Assembly: GCA_039189765.1 (NCBI GenBank)
Contig: JBCCYL010000009.1
Location: 54,984 to 118,983, forward strand
From: Cyanobacteria bacterium P01_F01_bin.150
GTDB lineage: Bacteria; Cyanobacteriota; Cyanobacteriia; CAKZMO01
Length of the DNA stretch: 64,000 nt
Direction: 5' to 3'
Shown here: positions 22,462 through 31,548 of the stretch, piece by piece
Numbering within the stretch: the stretch's first letter is position 1
Layout of the letters: each line of letters opens with the position of its first letter
Translations under genes and position numbers: made by a program
The notes under the pieces: generated by a model
What the model was told of the DNA's origin: nothing
The model's database searches: none
The model's input: the letters and a program-made list of their open reading frames with translations, nothing else

Positions 22462-23208
22462 ATGCCAATTAATCCTTTAGCCAAATCAAAAAACATCGCG
22501 TTATGGACTTGCCCTAGAAGTCGTTCAACCTTGGTAACCAGAGCATTTGAACAACTAGATGAGGGAATTATTTTTGATGAGCCTTTCTGTGCTCCCTATA
22601 TACTGCACCATGGGTTTAATCAGCCTCACCGACAAGAGTTGTTAGCATTTTATAAAAACGATCACGATTACATCAAAGTGATTGAGAAAATTACGGGTGA
22701 TCTACCACCTGGAGCGTCTTTTTCTTTTCAAAAACATATGTCTAAACATGTTCTACCGGACTTTGGTAAGGAATGGATGCAAGATCTTCACCATGTCTTT
22801 TTAATTCGGGATCCAAAGGAAATTGTCTTATCTTGGCATAAAGTCTGTGGAGACGTGACAGCCCATGATATTGGGATGGAAGTGCACTACCAAATATTTA
22901 AGTATGTTCAATCATTTAGTCAACATACTCCATTAGTCCTTGACTCAATTGATTTAGTGAGAAATCCTGAGGCGTTTCTTCGTCTAATCTGTTCACACTT
23001 TAATCTGAATTTTTCCAGTAGAATGTTGACCTGGAAAGCAGGTCTGAAAGACTCTAATCTGTTGTTTTCTGGCGCTTTATCCTCATTGGCTTCAACTTGG
23101 TATGAGGATGTTGCAAACTCCACTGGCTTTCTGCCTTATCAAGAGAAGGAGATTTCTCTAACTGATAATCTAAAACGTCTGGCAGAAGATTGTTTCCCCT
23201 TCTATTAA
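22462..23208 (+). CDS. Sulfotransferase-like protein (P-loop), probably slightly truncated
   Basis: ALWTCPRSRST, DEPF, FQKHMSKH, FLIRDPKE, ML.W; reading frame appears to continue past the TAA. Confidence 0.75.
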   Translation: MPINPLAKSKNIALWTCPRSRSTLVTRAFEQLDEGIIFDEPFCAPYILHHGFNQPHRQELLAFYKNDHDYIKVIEKITGDLPPGASFSFQKHMSKHVLPDFGKEWMQDLHHVFLIRDPKEIVLSWHKVCGDVTAHDIGMEVHYQIFKYVQSFSQHTPLVLDSIDLVRNPEAFLRLICSHFNLNFSSRMLTWKAGLKDSNLLFSGALSSLASTWYEDVANSTGFLPYQEKEISLTDNLKRLAEDCFPFY

Positions 23209-24144: not shown

Positions 24145-24177
24145 GCGATCGCTCTCACTATTCCACTCAGCGATCGC
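24145..24177 (+). repeat. HIP1 mini-array 1
   Basis: Two GCGATCGC copies 25 nt apart with a C/A-rich spacer. Confidence 0.6.
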
Positions 24178-24234
24178 CCTCTACCCCCAAAGACACAGTA
24201 CCATTTAGGTGGGTGTATTGATTGTTTTTCGCTT

Positions 24235-24325
24235 ATGCCAACGTTATTGAGAGTCGGTCCATATCGTTTTTTCTGCTATGCTGGTGACCCTGCTGGAGAG
24301 TTGGCATGACTTCTTCAATGATTGA
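24235..24325 (+). pseudogene. DUF4160 family toxin-like gene, internally deleted
   Basis: MPTLLRVGPYRFFCYAGD joined out of frame to LLESWHDFFND*, the two ends of a DUF4160 protein. Confidence 0.75.
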
Positions 24326-24614
24326 TCGGATTGATACTCAAATAGTGAAGTTAGTAACAGTAACAGTAACTGATGAGTTTCTAACTGTTGATGTAATGGA
24401 TGGACGGGTTATTTCTGCACCTTTGACCTGGTATCCTCGCCTGCTTAATGCATCTCAGGCAGAAAGAGAGAACTGGCGGCTAACAGGTGGAAAAACTGGC
24501 ATTCATTGGCCTGACTTGGATGAGGATATTAGCATCCGGAATATTATTCTGGGTCAGCCATCTGGAGAAAGTCAAAAGTCACTCCAACGTTGGCTCAAAA
24601 GTAGAATGCAGTAG
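24306..24614 (+). CDS. DUF2442 family protein (putative antitoxin)
   Basis: DGRVISAPLTWYPRLLNAS..ERENW, GIHWPDLDEDISI. Confidence 0.9.
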   Translation: MTSSMIDRIDTQIVKLVTVTVTDEFLTVDVMDGRVISAPLTWYPRLLNASQAERENWRLTGGKTGIHWPDLDEDISIRNIILGQPSGESQKSLQRWLKSRMQ

Positions 24615-24621
24615 TTTTTGA

Positions 24622-24800
24622 GCGATCGCCCCTCTCATCATAACTTGCGACAACGCGATCGCCCCCAAATTCCACAACAGCGATCGCCTCCAAATTCCAC
24701 AACAGCGATCGCCCTCACAATCCCAAACAGCGATCGATCCCACCACTCCACTAAAAAGCGATCGCCATTACAACCTAAAATCCCCACAATCAGCGATCGC
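24622..24800 (+). repeat. HIP1-anchored repeat/spacer array 2
   Basis: 6 perfect + 1 degenerate GCGATCGC every ~25-35 nt, G-poor spacers. Confidence 0.85.
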
Positions 24801-24834
24801 ATACAATTACTCTGGTGCTCTACTCTGGCTTGGG

Positions 24835-25134
24835 ATGGCGATACGTAATTTTCAGAACAAGGCAACGGAAGATATCAACTATGGAGTAGTTTCAAAAATT
24901 GCGCTGAAGCTCCTTCCTCAAGAGTTGCATCGAAAGGCGCGAATTAAATTAGCGAGATTAGGTGCTGCCACTTCGATTCAGGATTTGCGAGAATTGAAAG
25001 GAAATCGGCTTGAAGCACTGAAAGGGGACAGAAAGGGACAATATAGTATCAGAATTAATGATCAGTATCGGATTTGTTTTAAGTGGAAGCAAGATTATCC
25101 ATACGATGTTGAGATTGTTGATTATCACGATTAG
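24835..25134 (+). CDS. higB: HigB (RelE/ParE superfamily) toxin
   Basis: GNRLEALKGDRKGQYSIRINDQYRICFKW...VEIVDYH. Confidence 0.9.
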   Translation: MAIRNFQNKATEDINYGVVSKIALKLLPQELHRKARIKLARLGAATSIQDLRELKGNRLEALKGDRKGQYSIRINDQYRICFKWKQDYPYDVEIVDYHD

Positions 25135-25149
25135 AGTGGAGATAAGTTC

Positions 25150-25437
25150 ATGACCATACAACATGTTACGTCAATTCATCCTGGAGAGGTTTTACAAGAC
25201 GAGTTAGAGGAACTAGATATTTCACCCGAAATCTTAGCCGAGCACATCAAAGTTCCCATAACGAATATTTTGGATATCTGTAGTGGTCAAAAGGATATTG
25301 ATGCAACGCTTGCCATTAAGCTTTCACGCGCATTAGGAGCTAGTCCTCTGTTTTGGCTTAATCTTCAAAACAATTGGGAATTAAGTCAAATTGATGAGTC
25401 CGCTTACCAGGATATTAAACCTGTCGTAGCTGCTTGA
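25150..25437 (+). CDS. higA: HigA antitoxin (HTH)
   Basis: IHPGEVL..EL, AIKLSRALGAS..FWLNLQ. Confidence 0.9.
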   Translation: MTIQHVTSIHPGEVLQDELEELDISPEILAEHIKVPITNILDICSGQKDIDATLAIKLSRALGASPLFWLNLQNNWELSQIDESAYQDIKPVVAA

Positions 25438-25438
25438 C

Positions 25439-25670
25439 GCGATCGCCCCTAAAAATCTCACCAACGAGCGATCGCCTCCACAAAGTCCATCAACCAGCGA
25501 TTGCCCTCAAAACTCCACAAGTCAGCGATCGCCCTTCACCAATCCACCAACCAGCGACGCCCCTCCCATCATAACTGGCAACAAAGCGATCGCGTTCCAG
25601 CACCAGGAGCGATCGCTTTCCAAACTCCACAACAGCAGTCGATCCCACCACTCCACGAAAAAGCGATCGC
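25439..25670 (+). repeat. HIP1-anchored repeat/spacer array 3
   Basis: 6 perfect + 3 degenerate GCGATCGC; some spacers shared with arrays 2 and 4. Confidence 0.85.
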
Positions 25671-25696
25671 ATTTCTGACTCTCTACATTCCTAGGA

Positions 25697-26023
25697 TCAG
25701 GCACTCTTCTTTGTTGCCGTCTCTTTTTGAAGAAGAAAATCAAGGTATTCTTCGAGTTGAAGAAGTCTAGGTTCTGATAGCTGTCCTAACTTGTCTAGAA
25801 TTGCTTGCTGCTGTTGCCATTGTTGCAGGGGCATGATTTGTGATGCTGCAACTTCTACAGTGACATTAGGAACGTCAAACCCTTCTAGGCTATAGCCATC
25901 TTCCTCATTTTCAGGCATGGCGTAATATTCCACGACTGTGGCACGATCGCCTCTCTTGAGACGATATTCGGGAATATCTTCGGCCAGGGCAACTTTGGAA
26001 AACAGAGGGTGTTGGCTGCTCAT
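25697..26023 (-). CDS. DUF4926 family protein with C-terminal DUF2281-like helix
   Basis: KVALAEDIPEYRLKRGDRATVVEY, EDGYSLE; C-term LLQLEEYLDFLLQK; ATG overlaps the upstream stop. Confidence 0.75.
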   Translation of the reverse strand: MSSQHPLFSKVALAEDIPEYRLKRGDRATVVEYYAMPENEEDGYSLEGFDVPNVTVEVAASQIMPLQQWQQQQAILDKLGQLSEPRLLQLEEYLDFLLQKETATKKSA

Positions 26024-26352
26024 AAATTTTCTCCTTTGTCTGGCACTAGGGTAACAAATCTGGTCACTGTGGGAGTCACCATCCAGATCGTTTTGATGTT
26101 TAGTTCTACTCCATTTTCTCCTACCAGAGTGGCTCGGATGCAATATTTCTGTCCGTATTTGTTGGTTTCAAGCAGTTCGGCAGGTTGAGATAAGACTTGA
26201 GTTTGTAAGTCTTCTTCTAGCTTTTCCCAGTTATCAAGCGTGTAACCTGCTTTTGCCAGAAATTTAGATTTGTCATCTTTAGGTAAGGGAATCAGTAAAT
26301 ACTGGGTTAGTTTTGCTTCTGGAATTGCTGCGTCTGGGGGAAGAAAAGCCAT
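26020..26352 (-). CDS. DUF6883 family protein (putative RNase-fold toxin)
   Basis: AAIPEAKLTQYLL, DKSKFL..AGY, YGQKY, TIW...RFVTLVP. Confidence 0.75.
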   Translation of the reverse strand: MAFLPPDAAIPEAKLTQYLLIPLPKDDKSKFLAKAGYTLDNWEKLEEDLQTQVLSQPAELLETNKYGQKYCIRATLVGENGVELNIKTIWMVTPTVTRFVTLVPDKGENL

Positions 26353-26395
26353 CGATGCACCAAACGAGAATTACTTCTATTGTAATTTAAGTTTT

Positions 26396-26667
26396 GCGAT
26401 CGCTCCCTTCTCTTGTGGCCACTCCACCAGCCTGCGATCGCCCCTCTCACCATAACTTGCGACAAAGCGATCGCATTCCTCATCACTACAAGCGATCGCC
26501 ACTACCAAGTCATCAGTCAGCGATCGCTCCCTAATCTGCACACATAGCGACCGCTTTTTGTCCCCCTAATAAACAGCAAGCGATCCTCACAACTCTACAC
26601 ACTGCGATCGCCTACCAAAACTCCATAAGGGTGTTCGCTCTCCATAATACCCACAATCAGCGATCGC
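26396..26667 (+). repeat. HIP1-anchored repeat/spacer array 4
   Basis: 7 perfect + ~3 degenerate GCGATCGC, G-poor spacers. Confidence 0.85.
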
Positions 26668-26701: not shown

Positions 26702-28234
26702 TTATGCTATTTCCAAATGTGTTAAAGGCGACATCATTTGACGACAATACAAAGAGTGACACAGTTGATTTTTTTCATCAAACCAAATGACGCCAATTTT
26801 TCTATCTAAACACATATATTCTTGTAACCATGAAACCACAGTTGGTTCATTAGGAAAAACAAGACACAATATTACGTCATAGCCTATGATATGTTGATAC
26901 CTGAAACGATACTCATATAGTTGACTAATTCCTTTTCGAGATTGACTTAGGAGATTATCTCTCGTCGTACTTTTGACCTCAAAAATGAATTTCTCTCCGT
27001 TAGAAGGTAATTGAGCAAAAAGATCAATATGTTCATTTTCGGTTGACTCAACACCACGTTCTTTAAGATAAGAATAGAGCTTCTCCAGAATTATCTTGTG
27101 ATTCAGATTTGCTCTTTGCCGCTTAATTCTAGTGATTTCTGGGTCAGCATAAACTGGCTTCTTCAATTTTTTATTTTGAGGATTAGACTCCTCAAATTTT
27201 AGAGGCTTAAACTCGTATATACTCTCTGATTTCTGAATTTCTATTTGATTATCAGAGGAAATATCAAGACCTTGAAGCTCAGTATAAATTTTAGGATCTT
27301 CATTTGTCAGGATTTCAACCGATTCTGCACTTAGTGTTTTGATACCGTCAAAATAATCACCCCAGGAACAAATCCTGACCTCATCTAACAGATCATCAGA
27401 GCTTGATGCCTTATCAAATCCCCGAAACTCAGTTTGTATAGCACTAATTGCATTTAATTTAGCTTCAAGCTGGCGTCTATCGGATTGACTAACATATCTT
27501 CTAAGTCTAATTGCATCACGATCAGAAACCAACAAATTAGTATGCTTTAGAATATGAAAACGACTCTCATATTTCTGAGGCGGAAATAAAGTACCGTTAC
27601 GAGACTTTTCTAGTACACAAATCACATCATCTAAATTTGGATTAGCACGACTATTTGTTCTAGGATGGTTGGCTAGAATAAAAACTTCTGACCGAGATAA
27701 AGCTGCATTAAAGAGGCTAACATCTCGCAAGAAAGAGTCAGCCTGAATACCTTTGCATATAAGCCTTAAGGGGGATAAATGTATATTATTTTTGACAAAT
27801 TCTAAAGTTCTGTCACGTGTGTTAGATTGTATCCTTACATTATTAGAATTTGTTTGATAAGCAATACCCATGCCGTTTGGATACTGAAATAGTGTAAGTT
27901 GAAGTACCATAAAGGATGATACATTTGGCTCTTCGCAAACTAAAAATCGCCTGGTGGTTTCGCTAATAAATATATGCCAGATTCCATCTTTAAGTGCAAC
28001 TCTGTATAGCCCTAAATACGCAGGGTAAGCACTTATCTCATCTCTAAATTTAGAAGGATCTCTTGCGACCTTAGATGCTCTTGGACTGATTTTTGACAAA
28101 CGAGCTTCGATTGCTTTTCGGTCGTAAGGTTTTCCATCAAATTCGGAAAATATAGTCGCAATATCAATCAGCTTATCCGACCAGTCGTCACCACTTGAAT
28201 GAATTTTATGACTAAATAGATCTTTTATTTCCAT
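26702..28234 (-). CDS. Putative restriction endonuclease (C-terminal PD-(D/E)XK)
   Basis: HIDLF...IFEVKS...GISQLYEY; AT-rich; overlaps the MTase 3' end. Confidence 0.65.
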   Translation of the reverse strand: MEIKDLFSHKIHSSGDDWSDKLIDIATIFSEFDGKPYDRKAIEARLSKISPRASKVARDPSKFRDEISAYPAYLGLYRVALKDGIWHIFISETTRRFLVCEEPNVSSFMVLQLTLFQYPNGMGIAYQTNSNNVRIQSNTRDRTLEFVKNNIHLSPLRLICKGIQADSFLRDVSLFNAALSRSEVFILANHPRTNSRANPNLDDVICVLEKSRNGTLFPPQKYESRFHILKHTNLLVSDRDAIRLRRYVSQSDRRQLEAKLNAISAIQTEFRGFDKASSSDDLLDEVRICSWGDYFDGIKTLSAESVEILTNEDPKIYTELQGLDISSDNQIEIQKSESIYEFKPLKFEESNPQNKKLKKPVYADPEITRIKRQRANLNHKIILEKLYSYLKERGVESTENEHIDLFAQLPSNGEKFIFEVKSTTRDNLLSQSRKGISQLYEYRFRYQHIIGYDVILCLVFPNEPTVVSWLQEYMCLDRKIGVIWFDEKNQLCHSLYCRQMMSPLTHLEIA

Positions 28235-29339
28235 TACTTAAAAAATTGAGTTCTAGGATTTTAATTAACTCATCAATGCTTGGTTTTGCTTCTGTATTAA
28301 AAATATTCTGCGAAACATATCTCGCTAAAATACCCGCAAATAGTGGTGGAACCGCATTGCCAACCTGACGAATTACATGTCTCCCAGTCCCATGAAAATC
28401 CCACCAATCAGGGAATGTTTGAATACGAGCGCTTTCTCGTGGAGTCACTTCTCGTGGGTCATAGGGATGGACATGTCCTTTCCCTCCACCTGCATCAGAA
28501 CCAACAATAATTGTAAAGCTTGGTCTATCTGGATTTAATTTATTTATTCTCGTTTTTGGATCTCTTTCTCCATAGGATAAGGAATGATAACGCTCAACAA
28601 TTCTTTCACTGTGCTTGCGTCCCACATGTCCATTGAGCGGCGGTTTTTTTTTCCAATCAGTGATGGGTTTAGGTAAACCGGATAGTGCAGACTGAACAGT
28701 ATTAAATGGCCGACAATCATTCAATAATGATTTTTGCTCTCCAAAAATTTCTTTTTTTACTTCTGAATGAGTTGAAAACATTTTTGGAACTTTCTTGCCA
28801 GAGCGAGTTCCAATAAAGAATAGTCTTCGTCTAAATTGAGGCACACCAAACTCAGCTAGCTCATATTCATGGTCTGAGATGGTATATTCTCCGCTCAAAG
28901 ATAAAGTCTTAAGAAGTTCCTGATATAGGTTGCCATTGTGGATAGTTTTCAACCCAGTCACATTCTCAAAGATAAATGCTTCAGGCTTTATCTCGTTAAT
29001 TATTCGGGCGTATTCGAATACCAAACCACCACGAGGATCTTCTAATCCCTTTCTTCGACCAAAAATAGAGAATGCCTGACACGGAGGACCACCAATAATG
29101 AAATCGATGTTGCAGTGACCGATCTCATTCTTGACACTTTGTTGTGATAGCTGCCGCACGTCCTGACATAAAACCGGATGCTTGTTGAGATAAGGCTTCT
29201 TCTCTTGGTTTTGCTCTAGTGTTTTACATGAGAACGAGTCTATATCAGATGATAAAACTAAATGAAAACCAGCAGCAGAAAAACCTAAGTCAAGGCCACC
29301 GCCACCAGAAAACAACCCTAGTGTGTTGATTTGTGTCAT
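28212..29339 (-). CDS. C5 DNA cytosine methyltransferase
   Basis: LFSGGGG, GGPPCQAFS, FENV, PQFRRR, RESARIQTFPD, QVGNAVPP. Confidence 0.95.
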   Translation of the reverse strand: MTQINTLGLFSGGGGLDLGFSAAGFHLVLSSDIDSFSCKTLEQNQEKKPYLNKHPVLCQDVRQLSQQSVKNEIGHCNIDFIIGGPPCQAFSIFGRRKGLEDPRGGLVFEYARIINEIKPEAFIFENVTGLKTIHNGNLYQELLKTLSLSGEYTISDHEYELAEFGVPQFRRRLFFIGTRSGKKVPKMFSTHSEVKKEIFGEQKSLLNDCRPFNTVQSALSGLPKPITDWKKKPPLNGHVGRKHSERIVERYHSLSYGERDPKTRINKLNPDRPSFTIIVGSDAGGGKGHVHPYDPREVTPRESARIQTFPDWWDFHGTGRHVIRQVGNAVPPLFAGILARYVSQNIFNTEAKPSIDELIKILELNFLSNGNKRSI

Positions 29340-29796
29340 CTATCAACGTCCAAACAATCATTAAGCTGGGTGAATGAGAATTAACAGTTGATGATGTAAC
29401 TCCCACTTTAAGAACTATAGTACCAGCTCTAGCTACTGCTGATATTGCTACATATCTAGCGTTCTCCTCAAACGCATCGGAGAGGCTATCGGTTAACGCC
29501 TTTTGAATATGGTACAGCACTCGCTCATAATAGAGGGGCATCACCTTAACAAACTAGAATACTATGTTTTTCCAAAACTCTAAGATATTCGCAGCACGGA
29601 AGCTACCCGTATACGCCCGGTGACTCCACAGCAGCTCTTACGCTTCGTGGACGTCTTCGGGAATGCCTTCTACCACGGTGCTGATGTTGGAATGGGTAGA
29701 TGTGATCGCCATTCCAAACAAATTAACTTCGAATGACGATAAACGGTTAGTAACCAGTCCCAGTGGCCCTGCATCCAAGAGAATTACTCGACTCAC
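29340..29796 (-). pseudogene. Decayed PIN-domain (VapC-like) toxin
   Basis: GTG coupled to upstream TGA; MSRVILLDAGPLGLVTN, IPEDVHEA*ELL; in-frame stops at 29640-29638 and 29556-29554. Confidence 0.7.
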
Positions 29797-30503
29797 CAGC
29801 TAACCCCTTTCATTGACGAGGGAAAGAGTTTTCGCTCCGAAGAACGGTTTTTATCGAGTGCATGGACAAGAAATTCCCCTGTTTCGCATTGTTCAGGATC
29901 ATCCTCATCCAACCAGCTTTGCAACAACTGCACGCCTTCAATTGCTGAAGCCGATACTTGAGGGGTTGAAGCTACCTGCTGTTGAGCCTCAGAAGATAAG
30001 GATTGAGTCCCAGACTCTGTTGCAGCAAGCCGCATTTCTCTCAATGCATTCAATAAATAGTCAAGGTACTGTTCAAATGAATCCGCACTCTCTCCTTCGA
30101 TGCCGTGATGAAGCTTGATATATTCCAATGCAACGACTGCACAATCTACGTCTAACTCTAATGCTTGATACGTTTCCTTCAGTCTTGATAGAGCATAGTC
30201 ATCAAGGGGGGCAGAGCTATCCGTAACTAAACAGTAGCTTATTAGCCTTAGGAAGAAAGTAATGTCTCGATAACAACATGCGCTGTGACGTGTATCCAAG
30301 GCATAGCTGGGAAAATGCATGTAAACAGCTTGAGACGCTTTCTGAGCTAAAGAGTCTGAACATCTTGCTAATTGCTGTGCCGCATCTAGTCTTACAGATG
30401 CCTTGTGGAAACCATGCCAAACACTTTGCATCTCAGAGTTATTTAAAAAACGAGCTTGATCATGAGCATCAGCACAGATAGCGTTTATGGTACTAATATT
30501 CAT
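29793..30503 (-). CDS. Phycocyanin-alpha-like globin domain fused to a PIN-associated antitoxin
   Basis: DQARFL..E, AVYMHFP, CCYRDITFFLRLISYCLV, ALEYIKLHHG, YLDYLLNAL; C-term LLQSWLDEDDPEQCETGEFL...RKLFP..KGVSW. Confidence 0.75.
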   Translation of the reverse strand: MNISTINAICADAHDQARFLNNSEMQSVWHGFHKASVRLDAAQQLARCSDSLAQKASQAVYMHFPSYALDTRHSACCYRDITFFLRLISYCLVTDSSAPLDDYALSRLKETYQALELDVDCAVVALEYIKLHHGIEGESADSFEQYLDYLLNALREMRLAATESGTQSLSSEAQQQVASTPQVSASAIEGVQLLQSWLDEDDPEQCETGEFLVHALDKNRSSERKLFPSSMKGVSW

Positions 30504-31182
30504 ATTTTCCTATTTCCTTCAACACTAACCAGCAATATCAGAATCAATGCATGTTGTTTGTAAATGAATTTATGAGGTCGTCTTCCTTGTTTTAACATCT
30601 TCCTTTTCCTTGGAGCTATTCAAAACCCCACCGACCTAGTAAGGCTTGTCCTGGCTGACTCCGGCCTTGGCTACCGTTACCGCGCCGTAGACCGATAGCT
30701 GATGCTGACGGAGCAGTTGGGCAATAGGCCATGCATAGGCAGGCAAGAATGCGATCGCCATTCCTAATTACTCAGAAATCCACAAAATTCTGACCTTTTC
30801 CTGACTCCTCAGCCTTCAGTGGCCTATTTCTGCCAAATAACGTTAAATACCAGGCAAGTCTGGAGCTTGACTCTGAACAAGAATCAGCCTATGTTCGTTT
30901 TTATGGCGATCGCAACGCTGCATCGGTAATTTACATCCAAGTGACTTACCGTATCAGCCCCTTGCCGTCGCTCTGGCTCAGAACTCAGGAGACTTAGCGC
31001 CATCGGCGGGTGCAGCGAACACCACACCGATGACTACACCCCAAAAACTGTTCGAGGCAGTTCGGAGGTATGGGTTGATTATCGCCCAGCTACCCCGATT
31101 TGTACCACAGGTTGCGGAGTGGCTGAGTGATTTTGGGTTCTGGTCTCTATCCATTGATGTTTATATCTGGAGACCAGAAAAC

Positions 31183-31548
31183 ATGTCTCAACCCTTTGAA
31201 CCGGGCGTATTTACGCCCACAGTTTGTGATGAAAATTATCCTGGAAACTACCCTGGAAACTACCCTGCATATTACGCAGGCAATTACCTGACAAACTACA
31301 CCACAAGCTATATTGCGAATTATGCAGCAAACACCGTGGCAGTAAGTGCAACGATGTCGTCATCGTCGCCGCCCCACTACGAACCCGTGCGCCATATGCT
31401 CTTTGGCAGCATCGCCGCAGTCCAGAACACGATCAAACTGCTGTACGTCCTTAACTACGCCGAACCCAATGATTGGAGTCATCCTGTTCCGTCAGGCCAA
31501 CCCGGTGAAGTCGTCGTCGTCTTAACTAAAAAAGTTCGTATCGGCTAA
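31183..31548 (+). CDS. Conserved cyanobacterial hypothetical protein with N-terminal NYxx repeats
   Basis: EPVRHMLFGS..AVQNTIKLL..LNYAEPNDWS.P.P...GEV; ATG 31183 follows GGAG. Confidence 0.65.
   Translation: MSQPFEPGVFTPTVCDENYPGNYPGNYPAYYAGNYLTNYTTSYIANYAANTVAVSATMSSSSPPHYEPVRHMLFGSIAAVQNTIKLLYVLNYAEPNDWSHPVPSGQPGEVVVVLTKKVRIG

Follow-up and report, generated by a model that had tools for sequence, protein, structure and literature searches.

HIP1-spacer arrays at the joints of toxin-antitoxin and defence cassettes in a cyanobacterial genome

HIP1 arrays and the systems they resemble

The octamer GCGATCGC, known as HIP1, alternates with short spacers in four intergenic arrays that separate small toxin-antitoxin (TA), restriction-modification (R-M) and other cassettes in a 64,000-nt stretch from Cyanobacteria bacterium P01_F01_bin.150 (contig JBCCYL010000009.1, positions 54,984 to 118,983; this whole stretch is hereafter the window, and coordinates count from its first letter). 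HIP1 is described as having been without a clear function for three decades (PMC13756078). Its presence in homology arms has been found to raise integration up to 7-fold, and more than 100-fold if methylated (10.1101/2024.09.10.611283), and an smtB excision between HIP1 copies has been reported (PMC13756078). Such reports of excision and recombination have in common with the window arrays the same octamer at the joints and likely the same chemistry, but they concern single dispersed sites, and their cited parts describe neither arrays nor a cassette platform.

In the neisserial intergenic mosaic element (NIME) arrays (Bentley et al. 2007, PMC1797815), a short conserved palindrome likewise alternates with variable spacers between genes. 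These arrays are syntenic yet length-variable, as are those of the window, and they have been proposed as substrates or recombinase targets for incoming DNA, including the insertion of array-flanked genes. The differences lie in the core (the 8-bp genome-wide HIP1 here, a 20-bp dRS3 inverted repeat in Neisseria), in the spacers (~15-30 nt, strand-polar and locus-specific here, families of 19-214 nt in Neisseria) and in the cargo, which here consists of whole TA/defence cassettes and in Neisseria of alleles of surface genes; NIMEs are stated not to have been observed outside Neisseria (PMC1797815). The bacterial interspersed mosaic elements (BIME) built from repetitive extragenic palindromes (REP) and linked to REP-associated tyrosine transposases (RAYT) are also intergenic short-palindrome mosaics connected with recombination (PMC3184786, PMC6006769), but the window arrays have neither a REP hairpin nor an adjoining Y1 transposase. 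Integrons and clusters of attC sites lacking integron integrases (CALIN) carry small accessory cassettes including TA modules, with co-oriented joints, often with no integrase nearby and with content that varies between relatives, as it does here (Cury et al. 2016, PMC4889954). In the window island, however, a scan of limited sensitivity found no attC-like hairpin, its genome has no intact IntI, cassettes lie in both orientations, and the joints are multi-unit arrays rather than single folded sites. On the first two grounds an integron was rejected, and the label 'integron-like platform' given in the preliminary description can be kept as an analogy only. In structure and in proposed mechanism, the window arrays appear closest to NIME arrays.

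In the pdif modules of Acinetobacter, pdif sites bound TA modules; the window arrays differ in having direct, not alternating, orientation and no dif-like bipartite site. A small dispersed repeat in HIP1, SDR5, was reportedly described by Elhai et al. in 2008. It is the nearest cyanobacterial precedent, though a dispersed family: a ~21-nt HIP1-associated sequence inserted precisely within HIP1 (PMC5861425, PMC13756078, PMC4390886). By its description SDR5 is set apart as one dispersed family confined to Nostocaceae, whereas the window spacers are diverse, local, tandem and matched by similar arrays in many groups. The literature searched, mostly excluding subscription papers, yielded no description of HIP1 arrays at TA cassettes.

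Arrays as joints of exchangeable cassettes

The arrays are supported as joints of exchangeable TA/defence cassettes by the enrichment of TA-type genes beside them, by the different cassettes found in congeners and by the swap boundaries, which at this locus fall in arrays. The source genome (G000) comprises 10.6 Mb in 350 contigs, the window's contig being C9. G001, G002 and G003 are congeners, while G006 and G010 belong to the sister genus; gene calls were made with a custom gene caller. All 21 perfect HIP1 copies that the preliminary description had placed in the four arrays were recovered (Table 1), and the spacing is 23-38 nt once the degenerate copies at 24730, 25497, ~25553, ~25631-25639, 26547, 26580 and 26631 are counted. 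The 23 spacers are C/A-rich and G-poor as described (C199, A174, T97 and G30 over 500 nt), and the three recurring spacers were all found. More specifically, the spacer at 24630 is identical to that at 26442 in 23 of 25 positions, with a variant at 25561 (unit S1), gatcccaccactccac is present at both 24736 and 25641, and ccacaatca followed by HIP1 is present at both 24784 and 26651. Arrays 2 and 3, said to start within 8 nt of a stop codon, do so at 7 nt and 1 nt past it, respectively. The second half of array 3 is a diverged colinear copy of the units opening arrays 2 and 4 and array 4 of G001, and unit S1 of array 4 is common to the G001 array beside its methyltransferase region. HIP1 occurs in 11,422 copies in G000 (1.07 per kb). 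With clusters defined as copies with a gap up to 90 nt, we counted 41 clusters of at least four copies versus ~9.5 expected at random placement, and 19 of at least five versus ~1 expected; the close spacing is well above chance despite the genome-wide abundance of HIP1.

A single 8,839-nt contig of even depth in run X1 covers the island, and an assembly artefact was rejected on this basis. Run X1 may be the source sample, so that its contig is not an independent confirmation.

The preliminary description had proposed a comparison of the locus in related strains, and cassette content at a shared gltB platform does differ between congeners. In the window the order is R-M, DUF6883/DUF4926, HigBA and DUF4160/DUF2442. 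On contig C794 of G001 it is another methyltransferase, a 211-aa open reading frame (ORF), HigBA, an intact DUF4160-DUF2442 pair and a VapC-like gene, and on C180 of G002 the same R-M pair as in the window, BrnTA and HicAB. Each of the three islands has arrays at every joint and follows gltB or a gltB remnant, gltB being the platform's anchor gene and intact in both G001 and G002; in the sister genus gltB is directly followed by a gltD-like gene, array-free. The slot of DUF6883/DUF4926 in the window is that of the 211-aa ORF in G001, and alignments break within arrays 3 and 4. Array 3 would have the structure expected to remain from an array that was split and partly duplicated on insertion. 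In window and G001 alike, HIP1 starts 1 nt past the higA stop. Because the cassettes at array joints differ between related species, the arrays are likely integrase-free landing pads. Searches for the islands of contigs C39 and C52 in five relatives gave gene-level matches (63-78% identity) that were mostly too diverged for joint mapping.

The DUF6883/DUF4926 pair was also followed into other surroundings. It adjoins XisH in G001 and Uma2/DUF2281 in G003, where homology with the window ends at the promoter-side HIP1, and this HIP1 is found at the pair in G001, G003 and an Allocoleopsis plasmid alike. On the plasmid (pMIC7113.01, NC_019739.1, of Allocoleopsis franciscana PCC 7113), the pair lies between 73-bp direct repeats of the form HIP1-spacer-HIP1 that are identical at 71 of 73 positions, start at one HIP1 and end one base past the next; the sequence outside the two repeats is unrelated. 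Across HIP1-rich loci, 13 of 95 homology ends shared a HIP1 compared to 1.37 expected with the partner slid (about ten times), and among pairs at least 85% identical the count was 7/22. This breakpoint test left out L069, L093 and L096 (duplicates or overlaps, L093 by the author's choice) as well as array-versus-array alignments and loci with less than 0.7 HIP1 per kb.

Association with TA-type genes was assessed by Pfam, the scans covering 111 of 177 ORFs around G000 arrays and 86 of 123 ORFs at public and congener loci (doubtful or distal ORFs were omitted, and the overlapping duplicates L064 and L080 were removed before counting). Thirty strong G000 arrays correspond to 24 intergenic gaps outside the window, and 12 of these adjoin a TA, XisHI, Uma2 or toxin gene as opposed to 2 of 40 random gaps of like length without arrays (Fisher p 4.6e-5). 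As arrays of one locus are not independent, the count was also made per locus (11/18); a further 4/24 gaps adjoin unnamed small gene pairs or antitoxin-sized ORFs. Seen from the genes, a HIP1 run (at least 2 within 300 nt) lies near 28 of 186 ParE/PIN/XisI/Uma2 genes and 226 of 7,200 others (odds ratio 5.5). When public genomes were scanned for the repeat pattern and nothing else, 25 stretches were returned, 23 of them distinct, from Nostoc, Cronbergia, Microcoleus, Aphanizomenon, Atlanticothrix, Oscillatoria, Dolichospermum, Spirulina and other genera. A TA, XisHI, Uma2 or restriction-type gene adjoins 21 of the 23 (20 without one SNF2/PLD helicase), the two exceptions being a repeat next to psaE in Spirulina and a perfect tandem repeat from the bin of a deltaproteobacterium. 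The proposed genome-wide enrichment of HIP1 clusters next to TA/defence genes is thus borne out. HIP1 triples were found in 86/151 genomes of the class, a count that is uncorrected for HIP1 density and gives only an upper bound on breadth; viral contigs held 53 triples, mostly without polar spacers.

Spacers have a C/T-rich 5' end and an A-rich 3' end, and neighbouring arrays are co-oriented in 22/25 pairs regardless of gene direction. A common spacer was found in 19 of 89 pairs of neighbouring arrays versus 13 of 21,026 distant pairs, nine of these 13 coming from one long locus. None of the 23 window spacers was found HIP1-flanked elsewhere in G000, no spacer match was found in 50,697 phage records, and matches to plasmids cover genes only. 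Spacers that are shared only locally and have no phage matches suggest that arrays multiply locally and do not form a dispersed mobile family or store an immune memory. CRISPR-like spacer capture was rejected given the 8-nt repeat, the paralogous spacers, the absence of phage matches and plasmid matches confined to genes.

Proposed host recombination at HIP1 and competing explanations

No IntI, tyrosine recombinase or Y1 transposase was found in the island, nor an attC-like hairpin by a scan of limited sensitivity, and HIP1-stimulated integration has been published; we accordingly chose a reading based on host recombination, and lean, if only slightly, towards the view that by such recombination at HIP1 cassettes are inserted and removed and array units become duplicated, with no dedicated integrase. 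A cassette would arrive as DNA from another cyanobacterium, probably by natural transformation, with HIP1 or HIP1-spacer-HIP1 at its ends. Recombination at HIP1 would place it inside a resident array, which would be split, often with one unit duplicated, so that the cassette would amount to one very long 'spacer'. Recombination between the flanking direct repeats would remove or replace it, while slippage and unequal exchange would expand and homogenise arrays locally, the HIP1 cores being kept and the spacers drifting. TA and R-M addiction would retain cassettes until toxin decay, as presumably with DUF4160. The arrays would then represent a natural HIP1 substrate with a sharp prediction, namely that HIP1-bounded cassettes enter arrays with unit duplication in dependence on the HIP1 core and its methylation, which would give HIP1 a testable job. 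If true, this would partly explain how large cyanobacterial genomes gather and reshuffle TA, XisHI, Uma2 and R-M modules without integrons, allow new defence genes to be found by a simple sequence marker and suggest short-homology landing pads for cyanobacterial engineering; the unnamed pairs DUF6883/DUF4926 and DUF6888/DUF6887, which occupy array slots, would be candidate defence genes. We regard as doubtful a wider version, in which polar HIP1 sites and a HIP1-directed host nuclease or recombinase form a phylum-wide integrase-free system that captures, circularises and reorders defence modules. If it were true, HIP1 would have a selected function in these arrays, which in cyanobacteria would correspond to attC arrays.

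A number of observations weigh against host recombination at HIP1 as a general route. The 13 HIP1-sharing ends represent ~9 independent joints at loci partly chosen for arrays, and the other 82 of 95 ends lie away from HIP1, so that the expectation of breakpoints in arrays holds for the swap boundaries at the window locus and for a minority of the wider set. Within G000, a shared HIP1 was found at 0/46 non-coding paralog ends of TA-type genes; among other small genes it was found at 4/146 paralog ends, three of them from a small-ORF family without a Pfam match. Arrays adjoin no TA-like gene in 8/24 gaps (e.g., cobW/WD40 or patatin neighbours), 158 of 186 TA-type genes (85%) have no HIP1 run nearby, and runs of at least three HIP1 beside the four TA families are not significantly enriched (3/186 vs 63/7,200). 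Of the 13 metagenomic DUF6883 loci that are closest, just 5 carry a HIP1 in the 150 nt upstream, three of these being near-identical, and other metagenomic DUF6883/DUF4926 loci are bounded by different repeats, the same cassette thus occurring without HIP1 joints. On metagenome contig L106, the pair is followed by an attC-like hairpin (a scan match) instead of HIP1. Deletions are also placed elsewhere: the 146-nt internal deletion that leaves a 24-aa ORF of DUF4160, compared to the intact 78-aa gene in G001, breaks away from HIP1, the gltB truncation in G000 is not at HIP1, and a strain in run X2 carries a 275-nt internal DUF6883 deletion (window joint 26035 to 26311) at a 2-nt microhomology, again not at HIP1. 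Finally, the congeners share only ~75-80% DNA identity with G000, which makes any order or direction assigned to the events tentative, and no near-identical strain with an empty site was seen. Of the earlier proposal that the arrays are recombination adaptors, the part that makes them joints of exchangeable cassettes stands, whereas array-free TA genes and the 82/95 and 46/46 ends off a shared HIP1 count against the remainder; arrays causing or speeding exchange, served by a dedicated recombinase or forming its main route, would go beyond present support. As separate observations, an attC-like sequence was seen by eye after DUF6883/DUF4926 on metagenome contig L109, which with that at L106 suggests that the cargo may also travel in true integron-type arrays, and the X2 deletion would be a second case, after DUF4160, of decay in a cassette's first gene.

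The arrays could instead be a passive by-product, that is, minisatellites expanding in the unselected gaps of defence islands that record turnover without promoting cassette entry, their HIP1 cores being remade by a genome-wide HIP1-making process (a mismatch-repair model of HIP1 formation has been proposed; PMC4390886) and direct-repeat deletions placing some breakpoints there. Locus-specific spacers that recur only locally fit such an origin, as do the several public arrays that are near-perfect tandem repeats, the abundance of other short repeats in the same G000 gaps, and the fact that most TA genes and most homology ends are without HIP1. Such an origin has difficulty with a single cassette that ends at HIP1 in four contexts, with the HIP1-bounded 73-bp duplication and with the 21/23 arrays selected by pattern from many genera that lie beside TA-type genes, and we consider it somewhat unlikely. 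That the arrays are mainly signals appears highly unlikely. Methylated HIP1 clusters might favour DNA uptake, given that methylated non-homologous HIP1 raises transformation (10.1101/2024.09.10.611283), or REP-like hairpins might end or stabilise cassette transcripts. Adjacent HIP1 copies do form hairpins in folding, and none of seven island genes checked contains a perfect HIP1, which would leave the arrays to supply all the signal. Yet the folding is that of any palindrome repeat, no terminator-like site was found in the island scan, polarity tracks the locus rather than the gene (its link to transcription is weak, the sense strand being G-rich in 42/68 gaps, p 0.07), and the unit duplications around cassettes are left unexplained.

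A dedicated trans-acting site-specific recombinase might alternatively act on a polar site (A-rich/HIP1/C-rich) and excise and insert circular cassettes in the manner of an integron. Site polarity, co-orientation and exact joints would suit it, and plasmid site-specific recombination at HIP1 has been reported in PCC 7002 (PMC4390886, PMC9239245). A run X2 contig of depth 2.2 contains a circle-like joint from 26477 back to 25714, that is, from array 4 to the DUF4926 end, with 45 letters on its short side; the two HIP1 sites at the joint share 14 nt and the letters between the joined ends are unread. A shorter array 3 in the X2 strain would account for this joint equally well. The integron integrase profile TIGR02249 had 10 matches in G000, none above cut-off and all fragments, only 1 of 11 tyrosine-recombinase loci has a HIP1 run at 3 kb or less and the island contains no such locus, spacers are not conserved across loci or genera, and cassettes occur in both orientations. 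Y1 transposases give a mixed picture: one gene on contig C51 of G000 is 57 nt from long HIP1 mosaics, while of the nine in the genome none is on C9 and 4/9 are within 3 kb of a HIP1 run elsewhere. With one striking case and the others loosely linked, RAYT/Y1 as the driver was rejected, and a dedicated recombinase seems improbable to us. Host recombination at HIP1 remains the reading that we prefer.

The C51 locus (G000:C51:1922-4138, L088) consists of an IS200-family (Y1) transposase gene and, immediately after it, two HIP1 mosaics with a period of ~143 bp, which contain REP-like hairpins and flank a HicAB-like pair. Broken intI remnants were found at C14 and C74 of G000 and none on the window's contig. 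A scan for attC as AAC...GTT hairpins, which has limited sensitivity, found none between window positions 23200 and 31200 and none in the islands of G001 and G002; the scan detected the L106 site, and at C14 it gave just 2 candidates, fewer than could be recognised by eye. The C14 region (G000:C14:53000-75400; L086, L087) is possibly a decayed integron. It carries an internally deleted intI remnant at 75009-75414 together with attC-like hairpins noted on inspection, and several of these hairpins are preceded by a repeated block of ~200 bp that holds 3-4 HIP1 copies.

Genes of the island and further loci

Table 1. Coordinates of arrays, genes and neighbouring features in the window (HIP1 start positions in brackets)
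Feature	Position	Strand	Evidence or remark
Orphan ORF, 178 aa	23298-23834	-	Left edge of the island, ~310 nt from array 1
Array 1	24145..24177		2 perfect HIP1 (24145, 24170) and a 17-nt C/A-rich spacer; shortened form of the four-copy G001 array at the same place
DUF4160 pseudogene	24235..24325	+	Aligns with the intact gene of G001, which has the Pfam DUF4160 match
DUF2442 protein (cassette 1, second gene)	24306..24614	+	Pfam PF10387
Array 2	24622..24800		6 perfect (24622-24793) and 1 degenerate HIP1; opens with unit S1, which recurs in arrays 3 and 4
HigB-like toxin	24835..25134	+	Pfam PF05015; starts 34 nt past the last HIP1 of array 2
HigA antitoxin	25150..25437	+	TIGR02607 above cut-off
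Array 3	25439..25670		6 perfect HIP1 (25439-25663); its first half corresponds to the array that follows higA in G001
DUF4926 protein (cassette 3, second gene)	25697..26023	-	Pfam PF16277
DUF6883 protein	26020..26352	-	Pfam PF21814
Array 4	26396..26667		7 perfect (26396-26660) and 3 degenerate HIP1
Methyltransferase partner, 510 aa	26702..28234	-	75% identical to the G002 copy; function inferred
C5 cytosine DNA methyltransferase, type II R-M class	28212..29339	-	Pfam PF00145; PADLOC MTase_II
Glutamate-synthase large-subunit gene, decayed 3' end	29446..29661	-	tblastn 59% over 78 aa and DNA alignment
Phycobiliprotein alpha-like domain	29638-30503	-	Extra ~80-aa C-terminal tail
Member of a small protein family without a Pfam match	30975-31548	+	Conserved structured-looking leader

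The module list of the preliminary description held for DUF2442, HigB, HigA, DUF4926, DUF6883 and the C5 methyltransferase by Pfam or NCBIfam, while its DUF4160 gene proved to be a pseudogene. The arrays were said to lie between two-gene modules, which for array 1 is true on one side only, its left neighbour being the orphan ORF. This ORF has a match in 1 of 41 genomes searched, namely G000 itself, and pieces ~94% identical to it were seen in run X2. The R-M module is secure in its methyltransferase, and G000 as a whole has 8 matches of the C5 type. For the 510-aa partner, Pfam, NCBIfam and PADLOC gave no match, a PDB search gave one match, to a designed protein, and nothing else, and the name restriction enzyme is therefore inferred only; its position and a PD-(D/E)xK-like motif recognised by eye make a restriction endonuclease likely.

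The remnant at the platform's edge is read as gltB from the gltD-like neighbour in the sister genus. The sister-genus gltD-like protein as tblastn query had no match in G000, and with only the gltB remnant left the NADH-type glutamate synthase appears lost; glsF is still present at C194. The phycobiliprotein alpha-like gene occupies the place of the missing gltB part and is overlapped by a 52-aa ORF with no NCBIfam match, the start of which we take to resemble a PIN toxin. TACAAT-like hexamers were noted by eye just within cassette boundaries, and a promoter scan was uninformative (9 promoter-like sites vs 5.4 +/- 2.6 expected). Rfam had no match over the arrays; its only matches were rpsB/t44 leaders, both under gathering score.

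The small protein family of Table 1 that lacks a Pfam match recurs at ~60 other G000 places. Of its 61 profile matches, 28 have a ParE/PIN/XisI/Uma2 gene no more than 3 kb away (13.6% in the background) and 21 have a HIP1 run at up to the same distance (11.4% in the background), and in three paralog pairs the homology stops exactly at a HIP1 just downstream. The family may mark or seed such islands. At G000:C78:24154-26100 (L012), long alternating two-spacer HIP1 arrays surround a DUF6888/DUF6887 pair, a candidate for an unrecognised TA module, and a related array ends contig C514 of G003. At G000:C19:8300-11900, three tandem precursor-like peptide genes (~60 aa, ending FDGDDE) are separated by duplicated HIP1-bounded blocks interrupted by insertion sequence pieces.

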